This document shows, piece by piece, positions 4,989 to 11,510 of a DNA stretch of 53,457 nt. Positions within the stretch are counted from its first letter, which is position 1, and each line of letters opens with the position of its first letter. This stretch comes from a virus. Taxonomy: Duplodnaviria; Caudoviricetes. Both the position numbers and the translations under genes were made by a program. The stretch spans positions 1-53,457 of the IMG/VR virus record IMGVR_UViG_3300040770_000286; one strand, given 5' to 3'. The notes beneath the pieces were generated by a model. It was not told where the DNA came from and searched no databases. It saw nothing but the letters and a program-made list of their open reading frames with translations.

Positions 4989-6278
4989 ATGGGTATTTAT
5001 AGAAAAATGGCTGAAGAAGCTTTAAGAAAAGCCAATACACCTAAAAAGGTTTTGGTCGAACGTGTAGTATATCCAGAGGGTTTAGTCGAAAGAATGCATG
5101 CTGAATTGGAAGATGATTTAGCTAATGGGACACACTCATTATCTAAAAGCCCTATTTTCCCAGAAGATGACGAATCTTCTTTTGAACAAAAAATAATGGG
5201 TAGACGTTTTAATGATGTAGCGAAACGATTCAAAAGAGCATACGATGTTAATGCTGTAAACGAAAAAGACCTAATTAGCGGCATGTCTTCACTTATAAAA
5301 GACACCGTTGATTTGGAGAAAGAACATACTAAAGCATTAGAAAAATTAGCAGTAGATATGATTCGTAAAGAGTTTGATATGGACGAGAGCGTTGTTGAAC
5401 TTAACGTAGAATTAACGCCAACAATTAATATGGTTGGAACAAAGAAAAACGCTAAACCAATTGCAGTTGAAATGGCTTTTAATAAACACGATGATATGGT
5501 TAAGGCCAAAGATGAGGTTTATAAACGTAGGTTTATTAATGCAATGATTCAAGGGTCTGCGAAAAAAGCATCACACATGTTTCATATGGTAGATGATGAG
5601 TTAAATGAACTAAACCCACGTTTAGGTAATAAATACTCTAAATTAATGGCTTCTGGTGATTACATGTATTATGTACTACCTAAGATGGATGAAATGCAAA
5701 ATGCTGGTATCGTTAGAGTTCAATTCCCAACAAAGGATAACCCTAAAGCGATTATTCACGTACAAGCAATGGTATTCCCAGTACTAGTTCACGAACTAGT
5801 TAAGGGTGTTATGGAGCTTATGTCAGCACATGGTTTACCTAAAAATAAGAAATTGGGTGAATATGTTATTAACAAAGCTGATTTCTTAGCTGCTGAACCT
5901 TGGGATATGAGATTAGGTCCAGCTTTATGGGAACAATTTACCGATGCAATCGATGATACTGATTTAGATTTAAAATATTATATCTACACTGATTTAATAT
6001 CATTACCAGTTAAAGATTTTAACATTAAAATGCGTGAGATAATGGGTGGCACTAAAATGGGTAAAAAAATAATTAAGGAACTAGTAGATACAATTAAAGA
6101 AGATTTAAAAAATGATGATTTTGACCAATCAATGGCAAACGTTCAAGGTGATGATGAGATTACACATACAGATGTTGAAGGTGATGATGGATTTGATTTT
6201 GATGAATTAATGAATGGGCTTTCAGATAATGAAAGCACTGATGAGAGTGATGGTTATGATTTTGATGAATTACTATAA
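4989..6278 (+). CDS. Hypothetical protein with a HExxK (degenerate zincin-like) motif and acidic tail
   Basis: 429 aa containing FPVLVHELVKGVMEL. Confidence 0.7.
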   Translation: MGIYRKMAEEALRKANTPKKVLVERVVYPEGLVERMHAELEDDLANGTHSLSKSPIFPEDDESSFEQKIMGRRFNDVAKRFKRAYDVNAVNEKDLISGMSSLIKDTVDLEKEHTKALEKLAVDMIRKEFDMDESVVELNVELTPTINMVGTKKNAKPIAVEMAFNKHDDMVKAKDEVYKRRFINAMIQGSAKKASHMFHMVDDELNELNPRLGNKYSKLMASGDYMYYVLPKMDEMQNAGIVRVQFPTKDNPKAIIHVQAMVFPVLVHELVKGVMELMSAHGLPKNKKLGEYVINKADFLAAEPWDMRLGPALWEQFTDAIDDTDLDLKYYIYTDLISLPVKDFNIKMREIMGGTKMGKKIIKELVDTIKEDLKNDDFDQSMANVQGDDEITHTDVEGDDGFDFDELMNGLSDNESTDESDGYDFDELL

Positions 6279-6300
6279 CATACATAAGATTAATAAGTTA

Positions 6301-6324
6301 AAAACACCCTAGTGGTGTTTTTTT
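6301..6324 (+). terminator. Rho-independent terminator
   Basis: AAAACACC-CTAGT-GGTGTTTT followed by a T run. Confidence 0.75.
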
Positions 6325-6378
6325 CGTTTAATAAGATTTACTTTGTTAACGTAAAGGCTATTATTTAGCTAAAAACTT

Positions 6379-7290
6379 ATGGAATTAACTAATAAAGAAA
6401 TGTTTACCGAATATGCTAGATGTTATAAGAATCCAGAATATTGTATTGAGAATTATTTTAAAATATATGATAAAATACAAGAAAAAATCATACCTATTAA
6501 ATTATTCTCTAGTCAAAAAGAAGTGTTGTTTGGACTAGAGAACAATAGGTTTAACATAATAAAAAAATATAGACAGGCTGGTGGTTCAACTATTACAAAT
6601 GCATATATTGCATTTTTATTAGCATTTTCAGAAGAAACCGAACACATAGCTATTATTAATTATAGACTAGATTTAAGTTGTGAGTCACTAAAGCAGATAA
6701 GAGAATATTTACTCCAACTACCAAGATGGGTCTGGGGTCCAGAATACTATGGTAACCCAAAAAACGAAGCAAAATCAATTTTCTTAACCGATTCAAAGAA
6801 AGCTATTAGACTACCTAATGGTTCTCAAATAAACGTATTATCAACACATAAAGATGCACTTCGTGGATTTACACCTACATATCTTATCATAGATGATGCA
6901 GCATATATTCATAACAGTTGTGAAATATTTGAACACGCTTCAGTTAGTTTAACGCCACTGGTCAAAAGTAGATACACACTTTTATCGACACCAAATGGTA
7001 CTGGTAACTTATTTCATAGAACTTATGAAAATGCTATAATGGGCCAAAATTCATTCAATATCACCAATATGAAATGGTATGAAGATTTACGTTTTAATAA
7101 GGAACTATATTGGGTTAAAAAAGATATGGCAAATATTAAAGAGATTAAATTTACAACCGCATCATTTTTAAACATGTTTGAAGCTGGGTATAAACCAACG
7201 TCTCCTTGGTATGAAGGTATGTCTCGTAATTTTAATAACGAAAAATGGGTTGCGCAAGACATAGATGCTGAGTTTGTGAGTTTTCAATAA
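6379..7290 (+). CDS. Terminase large subunit paralog, ATPase domain only
   Basis: Collinear with the first ~300 aa of 7335..9116. YRQAGGST Walker A region, IIDDAA (Walker B Glu to Asp), LSTPNG coupling motif. Stops before the nuclease domain. Confidence 0.88.
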   Translation: MELTNKEMFTEYARCYKNPEYCIENYFKIYDKIQEKIIPIKLFSSQKEVLFGLENNRFNIIKKYRQAGGSTITNAYIAFLLAFSEETEHIAIINYRLDLSCESLKQIREYLLQLPRWVWGPEYYGNPKNEAKSIFLTDSKKAIRLPNGSQINVLSTHKDALRGFTPTYLIIDDAAYIHNSCEIFEHASVSLTPLVKSRYTLLSTPNGTGNLFHRTYENAIMGQNSFNITNMKWYEDLRFNKELYWVKKDMANIKEIKFTTASFLNMFEAGYKPTSPWYEGMSRNFNNEKWVAQDIDAEFVSFQ

Positions 7291-7334
7291 ATTAACATAT
7301 TTATAAGTAACTAACAAATATTAGTTGGAAACTT

Positions 7335-9116
7335 ATGAATTTAACAACACAAGAGATATTTAAAGAATTTACTAAATCTTTAATGGACCCAACATATGCC
7401 ATTGAAGCCTATTTGGAAACATTCGATAAAACACAGGAAGGGTTTGTACCTTTTAAATTATTTCCTAGACAAAAAGAAATAATTGTTGCGTATGAAAAAT
7501 ATAGATTTAACTTAGTTACTAAGCCTAGGCAAGCTGGTGTGTCAACTACCACCGCTGCATATATGTCAATAAAGGTTGGTTTTGCCGACCCAGATAACCC
7601 AGAGGCGATACTAATTATTGCGAATAAACAAGAACTTGCGTTTGAATTTTTAGCTAAGATTAAAGATTTCTTATCTCAACTACCAAGGTGGGTCTGGGGT
7701 CCAGAATACTATGGTAACCCAAAAAACGAAGCAAAATCAATTTTCTTAACCGATTCAAAGAAAGAAATAAGACTACCTAATAAGAGTAGGGTAAAAGCAG
7801 TTGCGACATCTAAGGATGCACTTCGTGGATTTACACCTACATACCTTATCATGGATGAGGCCGCATATATCGACAACGGTGATGAGGTATTTGGTGCCGC
7901 TTTAACGGCATTAGGTACTGGGGGAAAAGCTACGCTTATCTCAACACCAAAAGGTATGGATAAGTTATATTATAAAACATATGACCAAGCCAAAAACGGT
8001 AAGAATAATTTTAATATCGTTGAAATGAAATGGTATGAAGATTTACGTTATAACGTTGGATTATCTTGGTTAAAGAATGATGAGGTTGTTAAAGAAATAG
8101 AATTCACCTTTGAATCATATGAGCGAATGGTTAGGGATGGTTATAAGCCAACATCTTTCTGGTATGAGGAAATGTGTCTGGGTATGAATAACGATGCTAA
8201 AATGATAGCCCAAGAGCTTGATGTGTCTTTCGTTGGTTCTGGTGGTAACGTAATCGATGAGAAATATATTGAATACCAGAACATACATAATGTTAGGGAC
8301 CCATTATATACCTTTGGGTTGGAACAAGAAATATGGGTATGGGCATTACCAGAAGAAGGACACCAATACGTATTAGGTTCTGATGTATCTAGGGGTGATG
8401 GTGAGGATTCATCAACCATTGTAATTGTCGATGTGACAACAATGGAGCAAGTTATGGAATACCAAGGTAAAATACAACCAGATTTACTTGCACAACTTGT
8501 AGAGGAATATGGTGAGAAATATAAAGCTTATTCTGTCGTCGACGTTACTGGTGGTATGGGTGTTTCAACAGTATTAAAATTATTAGAGTTTAATTATAAA
8601 CGATTACATTACGATAACGCAAACGGTAAGATTTTATCTGCTAGACAAAGAGAATTATCATCATATGATAAGGGTGATAAAATACCAGGATTTCACGCAA
8701 CATCTGTTCGTTTACCAATGCTTGCTAACCTTGAGTATCAAATAAGAACAAACGGAGTTAAAATTCGTTCCAGACGACTTACATCTGAAATGAAAACATT
8801 TATATTTAAAAACGGTAGACCAGACCATATGGACGGATACCATGATGATTTATTAATGGCTTTGGCGATGCCATTATGGGTAATCGAACATTCATTTAAA
8901 AATTTAGAGAGATTAGAGAAACAAACAAAAGCTATGTTGAGTAGTTGGGTTGGTGGTGCAACAAATGATGTACTTACCCCAGAAATTGAACGTGGTAATA
9001 ATTTTGTATCAAAAAATAAGGTGGTGGCACCGAAACCAAAATTTTCACACGTAGTATCCAAAAATATGCAAGACCCAACTGGTCAGTATATGTGGTTATT
9101 TAGTGGGTCAAAATAA
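7335..9116 (+). CDS. Terminase large subunit (T4 gp17-like)
   Basis: PRQAGVST, LIMDEAA, ISTPKG, nuclease motifs GSDVSRGDGEDSS and HDDLLMA. Lies just upstream of the portal gene. Confidence 0.95.
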   Translation: MNLTTQEIFKEFTKSLMDPTYAIEAYLETFDKTQEGFVPFKLFPRQKEIIVAYEKYRFNLVTKPRQAGVSTTTAAYMSIKVGFADPDNPEAILIIANKQELAFEFLAKIKDFLSQLPRWVWGPEYYGNPKNEAKSIFLTDSKKEIRLPNKSRVKAVATSKDALRGFTPTYLIMDEAAYIDNGDEVFGAALTALGTGGKATLISTPKGMDKLYYKTYDQAKNGKNNFNIVEMKWYEDLRYNVGLSWLKNDEVVKEIEFTFESYERMVRDGYKPTSFWYEEMCLGMNNDAKMIAQELDVSFVGSGGNVIDEKYIEYQNIHNVRDPLYTFGLEQEIWVWALPEEGHQYVLGSDVSRGDGEDSSTIVIVDVTTMEQVMEYQGKIQPDLLAQLVEEYGEKYKAYSVVDVTGGMGVSTVLKLLEFNYKRLHYDNANGKILSARQRELSSYDKGDKIPGFHATSVRLPMLANLEYQIRTNGVKIRSRRLTSEMKTFIFKNGRPDHMDGYHDDLLMALAMPLWVIEHSFKNLERLEKQTKAMLSSWVGGATNDVLTPEIERGNNFVSKNKVVAPKPKFSHVVSKNMQDPTGQYMWLFSGSK

Positions 9117-9428: not shown

Positions 9429-11510
9429 ATGGCAAAAGATAATTCAACAATATTCCAAAGGTTAGGTAGAGTACTTGGACCAGATGGTGTTAAACAAAAA
9501 CAAAAGCAACCGCAAACAACTCAAAATTATAATATTGGTAAAGGTGAACTACTTAAAACTAATAGTAAAGCTGAGTTTGACCAAGCAAAATTACAAGCAC
9601 AACAAAATAAATATTTAGGTAGTGTTTGGAAAAAAGTTGAGAATGGTTTGTTCCAACAATCAATTAATTATGAAACAACTAGAATTGGTTCATACGCTGA
9701 TTTTGAAGCAATGGAATTCTATCCTACAATTGCAGCCGCTTTAGATGTTATGATGGAAGAATCAACTACGCTTAACGATAAGGGTAGAATGATGAACATT
9801 TATTCTGATAGCAAGCGTGTAAAAGGAATATTAGAAGATTTGTTTTTCAATAGGTTAGACTTACACACATCATTACCTATGTACACTAGAAATACGTGTA
9901 AGTATGGTGATAATTTTGTATACTTAAATATTAGCGATAAACATGGAGTGACAGGCGCAAAACAAATGCCAAATTATGAAATGGAACGTAGAGAGAATGG
10001 TCTATTCGATATGATTTCTGGCCAACAAGGTTTAAACGATGAAGATACAGATGTTTCAGATAAAGTTAAATTCTTTTGGAGAGGTAGAGACGTTGAATTT
10101 AATTCATGGCAGATAGCTCATTTTAGGTTATTGGGTGATGATAGACGTTTACCATATGGTACGAGTGTATTAGAGAAGTCTAGAAGGGTTTGGAAACAGT
10201 TATTATTATCTGAGGATTCTATGCTTGTTTATCGTGTAACTAGAGCACCAGAAAGACGTGTGTATAAAGTATACGTTGGTAATATTGATGATGCTGATGT
10301 TGAATCTTATATTAACACAATTGCTGATAGATTTAAAAGAATGCCAATTGTTGACCCACAAACAGGTCAGATGGATTTAAGATACAATCAATTATCAAAT
10401 GACCAAGATTATTTTATCCCAGTTAGAAGTGAAAACGCACCAAACCCAATTGATACATTGCCTGGTGCTTCTAATCTAGACCAAATTGCCGATATTGAAT
10501 ATCTACAAAGAAATTTATTTACGGCACTTAGAGTACCAAAACCATTTTTAAATTTTGATGAAGCTGGTGGTGGTGGTGATGGTAAGAATCTTGCGTTACA
10601 AGATATTCGTTTTTCAAGAACTGTTAATAGAATACAACAATCTATGATACAGGAGCTTAATAAAATAGCTATTATTCATTTATACCTTCTTGGTTTTGAA
10701 GAGGATTTAGATAATTTTACACTTACATTAAATAACCCATCAACTCAATCGGAAATGCTTAAGATTGAGCATACCCAACAAAAAATTACCTTATTTAAAG
10801 ATGCAACATCTGATTTAGGTAATGGTTTTGCTGCAATGTCAATGACTAGAGCTCATAGAGAAATTATGGGTTGGTCAGACGATGATATCAAAGAGGATTT
10901 ATTACAACAACGTATGGAGAAAGCTGCCTCTGCTGAATTAGCTAACACAGCTAATGTAATTAAACACACTGGGACTTTCGATACAGTTGATAAGATTTAT
11001 GGTGATTACAAAGCCGCACTTGAAGGTGGCGTTGGTGCTGGCGGTGAAGAAGGTGGTGAAGGTGATGCTGGCGGTGGCAGTGGCGGTGGTCTAGGCGGTT
11101 CATTCGGTGGCGGTGGTGTCGGTGGAGAAGATTTAGATTTTGGCGATGAAGAAGAAGGTAATGACGATACTAGTGGTGGAGATGCTGGTGGTGATACAGA
11201 TTTTGGTGATGAACCAGCTGCGAGTGAAGAGTCTGTTGATGAACCAGCTGCTGTTGAGCCAGAGACTGTTGCTGAAATAATTAAAAGAAAAGAAAAATTA
11301 TTGATTGAAAATAAAGCGTATTTACATGAGAAGTTATCTAAACGTAAAATAAAATATCAAGATATATATATTAATAGATTAGTTGAATCTATTGGTGTTA
11401 ACACTAATAAAAATGCTGATACTAGAATACCGATTTACGATAAAAATGTTAGTGTAAATAGAGATATTGATGACATGATTAACAATATCGATAAAATGTT
11501 AGACGAATAA
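9429..11510 (+). CDS. Portal protein (T4 gp20-like)
   Basis: YGTSVLE, EDSMLVYRVTRAPERRVYKVYVGN, DYFIPVR, IDTLPG, ALRVPK and DIRFSR motifs, with a Gly/acidic C-terminal tail. Confidence 0.95.
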   Translation: MAKDNSTIFQRLGRVLGPDGVKQKQKQPQTTQNYNIGKGELLKTNSKAEFDQAKLQAQQNKYLGSVWKKVENGLFQQSINYETTRIGSYADFEAMEFYPTIAAALDVMMEESTTLNDKGRMMNIYSDSKRVKGILEDLFFNRLDLHTSLPMYTRNTCKYGDNFVYLNISDKHGVTGAKQMPNYEMERRENGLFDMISGQQGLNDEDTDVSDKVKFFWRGRDVEFNSWQIAHFRLLGDDRRLPYGTSVLEKSRRVWKQLLLSEDSMLVYRVTRAPERRVYKVYVGNIDDADVESYINTIADRFKRMPIVDPQTGQMDLRYNQLSNDQDYFIPVRSENAPNPIDTLPGASNLDQIADIEYLQRNLFTALRVPKPFLNFDEAGGGGDGKNLALQDIRFSRTVNRIQQSMIQELNKIAIIHLYLLGFEEDLDNFTLTLNNPSTQSEMLKIEHTQQKITLFKDATSDLGNGFAAMSMTRAHREIMGWSDDDIKEDLLQQRMEKAASAELANTANVIKHTGTFDTVDKIYGDYKAALEGGVGAGGEEGGEGDAGGGSGGGLGGSFGGGGVGGEDLDFGDEEEGNDDTSGGDAGGDTDFGDEPAASEESVDEPAAVEPETVAEIIKRKEKLLIENKAYLHEKLSKRKIKYQDIYINRLVESIGVNTNKNADTRIPIYDKNVSVNRDIDDMINNIDKMLDE

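Follow-up and report, generated by a model that had tools for sequence, protein, structure and literature searches.

Here, we describe a gene of 303 amino acids (aa) that lies directly upstream of the large terminase gene (TerL) in a virus record of 53,457 bases, IMGVR_UViG_3300040770_000286, the whole of which is called the window below. The gene, referred to as the paralog, encodes a copy of the N-terminal ATPase domain of the neighbouring TerL, and we tentatively read it as a lineage-specific pseudo-ATPase which is kept by selection and which could act as a modulator or competitor of packaging-motor assembly. The open reading frames (ORFs) and active-site elements on which this reading is built are the following.

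6379..7290, plus strand: paralog ORF, 303 aa, a TerL N-terminal ATPase domain without the nuclease (BLASTP, Pfam, T4 alignment, ESM Atlas model)
6565..6591, plus strand: Walker A motif of the paralog, K63-Y-R65-Q-A-G-G-S-T71, with the equivalents of T4 R162, Q163, G165 and T168 retained
6880..6897, plus strand: Walker B strand of the paralog, Y-L-I-I-D172-D173, with the Mg-binding Asp retained and the catalytic Glu (T4 E256) now Asp
7258..7260, plus strand: Asp294 of the paralog, replacing the 'lid' Glu (T4 E351) in the T4 alignment
7335..9116, plus strand: full-length T4-type large terminase TerL, 593 aa, 75-81% identical to the 80 nearest IMG/VR relatives kept

The two proteins are collinear over residues 1-301 of both, with 158/304 identities (52%; BLASTP, E 7e-108), and their DNA is 67% identical overall (608/903 aligned bases). 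Both pass the Pfam family PF03237 (Terminase_6N), the paralog with 26 bits at a cut-off of 22 (residues 66-273) and TerL with 32.4 bits, and the paralog also matches PHROG 5989, 'terminase large subunit', with an E value of 2.8e-26. The family profile matches structures of T4 gp17 at E values of 7e-32 to 1e-30, the PDB match 2o0h being a 385-residue gp17 chain. The final homologous residues of the paralog, F299-V-S-F-Q303, align with gp17 F356-S360, and residue ~360 is the end of the crystallised N360 ATPase domain. The nuclease part (the RNase H-like C-terminal domain) is absent from the paralog, whose ORF stops at the equivalent of that residue. A stored ESM Atlas model of the exact paralog protein has a predicted template-modelling score (pTM) of 0.85 and a predicted local distance difference test score (pLDDT) of 0.82, and it superposes with a TM score of 0.94 over residues 2-303 on the N-terminal half of a 595-aa TerL cluster; the protein is thus predicted to form the complete N-terminal ATPase fold of TerL, of the ASCE (additional strand, catalytic glutamate) type. 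Its isoelectric point (7.6) and net charge (+1) lie inside the range of the TerL N-terminal halves (TerL-N) of 52 relatives and are hence uninformative. The head module of the window is T4-type, with a portal (Portal_T4, 245 bits), a prohead protease and a Gp23-type capsid protein.

The active site of the paralog combines retained nucleotide-binding residues with altered catalytic ones. All of the Walker A residues K63, R65, Q66, G68, S70 and T71 are kept, and so are Q46 (adenine-contacting, T4 Q143), the Walker B Asp D172 and the S-T of the coupling motif. The Walker B strand, however, reads I-I-D-D in the paralog and I-M-D-E in TerL, the Glu column aligning with T4 E256, and the D173 codon is GAT (6895-6897) where TerL has GAG. 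In the related loci, which were taken with up to 6 kb of flank on each side where the contig allowed, all 181 TerL matches covering this column have 'DE', and all 144 covering the lid column have Glu where the paralog has Asp294. According to excerpts of PMC6379665, the catalytic Glu and an acidic residue of the lid are alternating partners of the Walker A Arg, and in this 'arginine toggle' model the lid Glu (T4 E351) is, with E256, the second partner of that arginine; the same excerpts report that the equivalent change in lambda TerL, E179D, is lethal, leaves weak ATPase activity and makes packaging ~13-fold slower. When seven TerLs were compared (T4, the window, four clade members at 57-88% and two at ~30%), the paralog was found to keep 20 of the 25 columns identical in all of them, T4 included, the five altered ones being, in T4 numbering, G133K, S240H, E256D, G277K and E351D. 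Because the catalytic and lid positions both carry Glu-to-Asp changes while the nucleotide-binding residues are kept and the nuclease is missing, the paralog looks like a pseudo-ATPase, in which nucleotide binding would be preserved and the chemistry crippled. It departs from a functional TerL in two respects, the catalytic Glu and the nuclease; the P-loop arginine is in place. The sequence-only reading of this stretch had described the collinearity with the N-terminal half of the adjoining 593-aa terminase, the end at the ATPase/nuclease boundary and the DD in place of the catalytic DE, and these descriptions hold.

The Walker A motif of the whole TerL clade, including the relatives at 26-35% identity, is without the classical GK[ST] lysine. 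The clade reads K-P-R-Q-A-G-V-S-T (K63-T71 of the window TerL, 7521-7547) versus S-R-Q-L-G-K-T in T4, with an invariant lysine two residues before the arginine, which recalls the lambda-type P-loop K-S-A-R-V-G-Y-S given in the excerpts of PMC6379665.

The paralog looks selectively kept rather than left to neutral decay, judging from its reading frame and its pattern of residue retention. In a neutral simulation that started from TerL-N, 0/4000 copies kept an open frame at 80%, 72% or 62% nucleotide (nt) identity, and the four internal indels that separate the paralog from TerL (6, 6, 3 and 3 nt) are all in frame. Outside the patches of gene conversion (described below), the residue of the own TerL is retained at 46/79 invariant columns, 27/50 columns conserved at 90-99%, 30/82 at 50-89% and 8/39 variable columns, with column conservation taken from 52 relatives; this gradient, from 58% to 21%, is significant (chi-square p 2.7e-4). 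An ORF that is open over 303 codons, in-frame indels and graded retention do not fit a pseudogene, although two near-identical short copies, P0001 and P0039, do look disrupted.

The region upstream of the paralog was compared with the regions upstream of TerL in relatives, and the window was scanned for promoter motifs, which gave the following features (g429 is the 429-aa gene that precedes the paralog).

6300..6322, plus strand: terminator-like hairpin 3' of g429, 9-bp stem with 3 GC pairs, followed by a T-run
6337..6368, plus strand: degraded copy of the clade TerL late promoter (by-eye alignment with the upstream regions of 31 relatives; position weight matrix, PWM)
7281..7305, plus strand: intact late-type TerL promoter, with a T-run at 7281-7284, 12 nt and ATATTTATA at 7297-7305 (PWM score 25.3)
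349, 1707, 1997, 7297, 11533, 13532, 46760 and 49189, plus strand: ATATTTATA sites from the window scan
20616, 22987, 26515 and 46737, minus strand: ATATTTATA sites from the window scan

Between g429 and TerL, the relatives have a GC-rich hairpin and a TTTAC-like element ~11 nt before a CATATTTAT(A/T) box (31 regions), and their TerL start codon follows 10-15 nt beyond this box. ATATTTAT lies at most 60 nt from the TerL start in 84/84 distinct upstream regions of the clade at >=57% identity and in 0/14 upstream regions of the distant clade at 26-35%. ATATTTATA is found 12 times in the window versus 4.65 expected, a count reached by 0/100 shuffles, and each of the 12 is followed, after 6-96 nt, by the start of a gene that reads in its direction. 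The ATATTTATA/ATATTTAT motif is probably the late promoter of the clade. It reads as the reverse complement of TATAAATA, the consensus of the T4 late box; that word is itself not clearly enriched in the window (23 sites versus 15.5 expected, with 7/100 shuffles reaching 23). A T-run is often seen ~12-17 nt upstream of ATATTTATA, and the genes preceded by the motif include TerL and the prohead protease.

Upstream of the paralog, the TTTAC element of this promoter is kept, but the spacer is 18 nt versus ~11 and the ATATTTAT box is degenerated to ATTATTTAG, so that the best PWM score is 1.7 versus 21-28 for the 12 real sites. The hairpin at 6300..6322 is the homologue of the GC-rich hairpin of the relatives and the weakest of the 28 compared, at -9.9 kcal/mol versus a median of -16.6 (range -19.9 to -11.0) in the 27 relatives. 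The intact TerL promoter overlaps the 3' end of the paralog. That the paralog lacks the motif standing before TerL had been pointed out from the sequence alone, and the motif, being enriched, is a real signal. The same reading had taken a terminator followed by TTTACT-N16-TATTAT (6337-6364) as a sign of earlier expression. Both elements are present as sequence; the second, however, is a 9/12 match to a sigma-70-like promoter, of which there are 50 in 9 kb versus 43.4 +/- 5.8 after shuffling, and its 'TTTACT' corresponds by homology to the element that stands upstream in the late TerL promoter. An early sigma-70-like promoter for the paralog, and with it the proposal of earlier expression, is thus not supported, since such sites occur at chance frequency and what precedes the gene is a late promoter in degraded form, itself preceded by a weak terminator.

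How such a protein might work can be outlined as follows. The paralog would bind ATP and hydrolyse it slowly or not at all, and it would act without a nuclease. Small amounts would be produced in the late phase of infection, when transcription of the preceding late operon, whose start is the ATATTTATA site at 1997, reads through into the gene, and the protein might act through the contacts of the TerL ATPase domain, that is, with ring neighbours, the portal or the small terminase. Its target could be the assembly of the phage's own motor or, more interestingly, the motors of co-infecting relatives; loss of a strong promoter and fast divergence would fit a pressure that limits interference with the own TerL. 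Published work makes such an effect plausible. When ATPase-defective subunits are mixed into T4 motors, DNA is engaged less, failures become more frequent and the motors slow down (PMC8589836, in extract), and phage-encoded inhibitors of rivals' terminases exist, as the available part of a preprint on TerI (10.1101/2025.02.27.640495) reports. Co-infection is also likely to be common in the clade, in which the TerLs of L118 and L085 carry apparent inteins and several portal genes insertions of ~1.2 kb. Since the paralog appears to be competent for ATP binding and defective as a motor, and to derive from TerL, which works as a pentamer on the portal, the two published precedents lead us to place most weight on a modulator or competitor of the packaging motor. 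The sequence-only reading had offered a packaging regulator, or a poison of the motors of relatives, as one of its proposals; this overlaps with the reading favoured here, which in both versions is a matter of what we infer for the protein.

Several observations weigh against this reading, and most of them are shared with the most serious alternative, namely that the paralog is a functionless leftover, a partial tandem duplicate heading for loss and tolerated since its promoter was lost, which we consider rather unlikely. Among the lineages sampled, the gene is confined to one: a second TerL-N copy is present in 0/183 related loci, and in each of 5 large relatives, among them a complete record of 288 kb that has terminal repeats, TerL-N is matched exactly once. 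An expectation that ATPase-only paralogs would recur in related genomes was thus not borne out. In the same way, among 5.8 billion proteins searched (37 matches) none that lies outside the paralog's own cluster of 3 members is more than 56% identical to it, the best of 54 IMG/VR loci is 51% identical to the paralog and the best of 46 loci on metagenome contigs 52%, and in cultured phages 1095 tblastn matches all stay below 60% (best 25.7%), with no blastn match. The conserved gene order of the related loci is g136-g319-g429-TerL-g82-portal, and it is in the window only that the paralog stands between g429 and TerL. As the promoter motif found before TerL in 84/84 relatives is missing and a terminator lies upstream, the paralog may be poorly transcribed, and the public runs matching the stretch come down to one, called X1 here, with no RNA run among them.

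The rate of evolution tells in the same direction. The pairwise ratio of non-synonymous to synonymous substitution (dN/dS) is 0.36-0.53 between the paralog and TerL versus 0.054-0.066 between the window TerL and its close relatives, so that constraint is weak; a three-point estimate gives a dN of ~0.41 for the paralog branch versus ~0.02 for TerL, and in the tree the branch is 2.79 long versus a median of 0.087. By these measures the paralog is shown to have evolved roughly 10-20x faster than TerL at the protein level, and the dN/dS of its branch could be anywhere from ~0.4 to ~1, since synonymous sites are saturated and do not pin it down. At the level of residues, 33/79 clade-invariant and 5/25 universal positions are altered, the catalytic and lid Glu among them, and GC content at third codon positions (GC3) has fallen to 0.208 versus 0.287 in TerL-N, a drift towards the AT bias of the genome. 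The near-identical copies P0001 (177 aa) and P0039 (112 aa), which come from short contigs, have frame changes at homopolymers, and both read I-I-D-A-A-Y, so that the D-D pair is short of one Asp; either the same phage population was assembled with errors, or these are disrupted, decaying alleles. A partial 5' duplication of comparable kind, and old, is recorded in the T4 annotation (alt.-1/alt.-2). It should also be said that the paralog is known from its sequence and a stored model, its binding to TerL, portal or ATP being what we infer, and that a dominant-negative copy would threaten the phage's own motor as well.

Nevertheless, a mere leftover does not account well for the state of the gene. 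None of the 4000 neutral simulations preserves an open frame of 303 codons, even when divergence is set a third below the observed value, and 4/4 indels are multiples of 3. Conserved columns are retained ~2.8x more often than variable ones, all of the Walker A and nucleotide-binding residues are intact, and the predicted fold is confident. Moreover, an early stop would be the easiest route to silencing, yet none occurred. The sequence-only reading had distinguished its candidate from a decaying duplicate, for which it named uniqueness to one genome and a dN/dS near 1. The maintained frame supports that distinction, whereas the confinement to a single lineage, the relaxed constraint and a branch dN/dS that may approach 1 do not.

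As for its origin, it is well supported by sequence comparison that a segment of ~950 bp, comprising the late promoter and TerL codons 1 to ~301, was duplicated in tandem on the phage's own lineage, and that the upstream copy became a separate gene which encodes exactly the ATPase domain, its stop codon being supplied by the second copy of the promoter. Two features are relevant here.

7276..7290, plus strand: duplication junction, where homology to TerL ends at codon ~302 and the TAA (7288-7290) lies inside the duplicated promoter
6715..6825, plus strand: gene-conversion tract, its counterpart in the own TerL being 7677-7787; 76 bases at its core are identical (6727-6802 = 7689-7764)

The stop codon TAA of the paralog comes two codons past the end of the TerL homology, inside the promoter copy, and the region upstream of the paralog is homologous to the terminator-TTTAC-promoter region of the relatives. 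Making sisters of the paralog and its own TerL-N gives a tree that the approximately unbiased test does not reject (p-AU 0.609) and that is ahead in likelihood (+8.67 log-likelihood units, lnL), and dN between the two (0.431) is lower than dN from the paralog to 9/9 relatives (0.454-0.527). The duplication is not datable from synonymous sites, as dS is saturated in all pairs (1.1-2.3); codons agree at 64/104 residues shared by paralog and TerL, barely above the 53.8 expected from codon usage. The exact run of 76 nt sits in a tract of ~110 nt of high identity, in which the TerLs of relatives are at most 85% identical to that of the window at the nt level, and the paralog shares with the relatives no exact run longer than 32 nt. 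Taken together, these values point to a recent exchange within the genome. Its direction was most likely from TerL to the paralog, because the protein encoded by the tract is the TerL consensus of the clade. Two further identical patches, at 6853-6881 and 7069-7093, were rejected as conversion, because the TerLs of relatives are also 97-100% identical to the window's there.

A free tree search, however, leaves the paralog unresolved at the base of the clade owing to its long branch, and synonymous sites are saturated, so a foreign origin has to be considered, in which the N-terminal half was recombined from an unsampled, ~50%-divergent TerL during co-infection. Such an origin, which would be compatible with any function, we hold to be improbable. 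It would explain why all clade TerLs stand at much the same distance from the paralog (66-68% nt, 47-53% aa) and why its synonymous-codon identity is no higher to its own TerL (62%) than to relatives (56-73%), and the slot between g429 and TerL does take up foreign genes in relatives. On the other hand, no sampled relative stands out as a specific DNA donor (best 66-68% nt overall, with the 32-nt longest exact match given above), and nothing closer than 56% came out of the searches of proteins, IMG/VR and metagenome contigs beyond the paralog's own cluster, although the clade is richly sampled (355 stretches). Residues shared by every TerL compared, T4 included, are altered, so the donor would have been no working TerL. 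The upstream region also matches the resident promoter/terminator region, and both the dN values and the likelihood of the sister tree favour the own TerL.

The paralog might also be a weapon or shield in conflict between phages or between phage and host, which would poison the TerL of co-infecting relatives, or sequester a host sensor that binds terminases or a terminase inhibitor made by a rival; to this more specific proposal we likewise assign a low probability. As a weapon, the hydrolysis-crippled domain would co-assemble with the TerL of rivals or block docking at the portal, while the own TerL would have diverged enough to escape.

A different version of conflict had been proposed by the sequence-only reading, namely an immune decoy, a pre-expressed and catalytically dead terminase ATPase domain that occupies sensors such as Avs1-3 and Upx without activating them. 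Fast evolution with a maintained ORF fits a gene of conflict, and the altered active site is, according to passages of PMC13601566, the very part that is read by EcAvs2 (through bridging ATP) and SeAvs3 (through 'immutable' residues); the authors also raise, as speculation, an anti-defence role for terminase-ATPase-like proteins, T4 vs.8 among them. The same passages, however, report that the isolated ATPase domain of 5/5 terminases strongly activates EcAvs2, that the ATPase domain alone activates all three Upx homologues, that mutants with Asp-to-Ala changes in Walker B or the nuclease still activate Upx in most cases, and that T4 vs.8, itself terminase-ATPase-like, is toxic together with EcAvs2. 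Thus, a free TerL-N domain would be expected to trigger these sensors and not to silence them. In addition, there is no sign of early expression, with the sigma-70-like site at chance and a degraded late promoter upstream, and the gene does not recur in the relatives compared. A silent decoy therefore finds no support in the published assays (PMC13601566), and we consider it very unlikely.

The tandem layout was also followed in the reads of X1, the sole public run that holds the stretch; it is probably the source sample, so a re-assembly of its reads is not independent. A k-mer assembly of X1 gave a contig from g429 into the paralog (to 6756), a 76-nt unitig (6727-6802), a contig from 6773 to 7718 and the rest of TerL, and the third of these bridges the 3' part of the paralog, the intergenic region with the promoter, and the start of TerL. 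Depth in the flanks is 23.3, 23.6 and 26.7, while the 76-nt repeat unitig has 61.5 (~twice); with the bridging contig, even flanks and a repeat at about double depth, the tandem layout is therefore not a mis-join. Although the k-mer assembly graph is broken by the exact 76-nt repeat, fusion of two strains there into a chimeric contig is exceedingly improbable, given a single contig that spans 6773-7718 from the paralog into TerL, equal depth on the flanks with the repeat at about twice that, a stop codon and junction of the paralog's own, and a protein that is recorded from 2 contigs plus 2 near-identical short ones.

The neighbourhood of the terminase showed some further features. The conserved gene g429 (4989-6278) encodes 429 aa with an acidic tail and is throughout the clade the gene just before TerL (with the paralog inserted between them in the window), a position that belongs to the small terminase gene in T4. 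The genes g429, g319, g136 and g82 are without a Pfam or PHROG family, and none of the genes of the window was recognised as a small terminase. In L088 (4845-5951) and L118 (4930-5946), an unrelated ORF of 338-368 aa with no Pfam match stands between g429 and TerL, and in L051 (5047-5742) a 231-aa ORF on the minus strand, which is HNH-like by eye and also has no Pfam match, takes this place. The TerLs of L118 (5998-9090) and L085 (983-3973) are single ORFs of 1030 and 996 aa with insertions of ~400 aa bounded by Cys ... His-Asn, which look like inteins; one is placed before the TGGKATLISTP motif and the other at the aspartate of the nuclease GxDVS, and ESM Atlas lists a 1022-aa TerL cluster with LAGLIDADG_3. 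Insertions of ~1.2 kb interrupt the portal genes of L005, L010, L034, L092, L095, L103, L117 and L118 around residues 156 and 348, and these could be introns or inteins with homing endonucleases. The portal gene of the window is uninterrupted. It contains, near its C-terminus, a long low-complexity stretch rich in Gly, Glu and Asp (11040-11290, residues ~540-620), and several relatives' portal matches stop at about residue 530.

Stand-alone proteins resembling the terminase ATPase have been noticed only recently, T4 vs.8, a trigger of Avs2, being an example. The locus described here, known from one uncultured lineage of large T4-like phage, appears to capture the birth of such a protein, that is, a domain-exact duplicate of TerL that has lost its promoter and both carboxylates of the arginine toggle and is still recombining with its parent. 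Should the packaging motor prove to be its target, the paralog would be a pseudo-enzyme of natural origin that regulates or poisons a viral ring ATPase, and, if the conflict version were true, the first 'dominant-negative terminase' known from nature, created when part of the target gene itself was duplicated. If it does not act on the motor, it is a well-documented case of the persistence of a partial duplicate in a large phage genome. Our literature search found no description of a terminase ATPase-only paralog adjoining TerL, with vs.8 as the sole precedent, and the passages on terminase in PMC7824862 contain none.

Among known systems, the N-terminal ATPase domain of T4 gp17 (PDB 2o0h/2o0j/2o0k; full length 3cpe and 3ezk) has the same fold and order of motifs, and the paralog shares with it the Walker A Arg, Gln143, the Walker B Asp and the coupling-motif Thr as well as the end at about residue 360. 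Unlike gp17, the paralog is a separate gene, E256 and E351 are now Asp, the GK[ST] lysine is lacking, as in the whole clade, and both the paralog and its own TerL are without the first ~100 residues of the T4 protein. Lambda TerL E179D (PMC6379665, excerpts) carries the same change of the catalytic Glu to Asp, but it is a laboratory mutant of a full-length enzyme, whereas the change in the paralog is natural, paired with a Glu-to-Asp change in the lid, and found in a domain-only protein. In T4, alt.-1/alt.-2 are, according to the note in the genome record, a partial tandem duplication of the 5' part of gene alt that adjoins its parent in a T4-type genome; the T4 copies are split into two small ORFs by a stop codon, unlike the paralog, which is one intact ORF of domain size. 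TerI of Listeria prophages blocks the DNA packaging of rivals via their terminase, much as the competitor-poison version of our reading would have it; in the available part of the preprint (10.1101/2025.02.27.640495) it is, unlike the paralog, small, expressed from a prophage and accompanied by dedicated self-immunity proteins, with no stated relation to TerL.

The closest precedent is T4 vs.8, a free-standing terminase-ATPase-like protein of a T4-like phage, taxonomically restricted and, in the passages of PMC13601566, without an assigned function. In contrast to the paralog, vs.8 (219 aa) is encoded far from gene 17, in a region of early genes, and has a canonical GKS Walker A and a DE Walker B. 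The family profile aligns with vs.8 at an hhalign probability of 12.8% and an E value of 0.0022, while the paralog is far closer to its own TerL (52%), and the window holds no vs.8 homologue. Since vs.8 is only remotely alignable, keeps a GKS/DE site and lies elsewhere in the T4 genome, the paralog represents an independent and much younger origin of a protein of the same kind.

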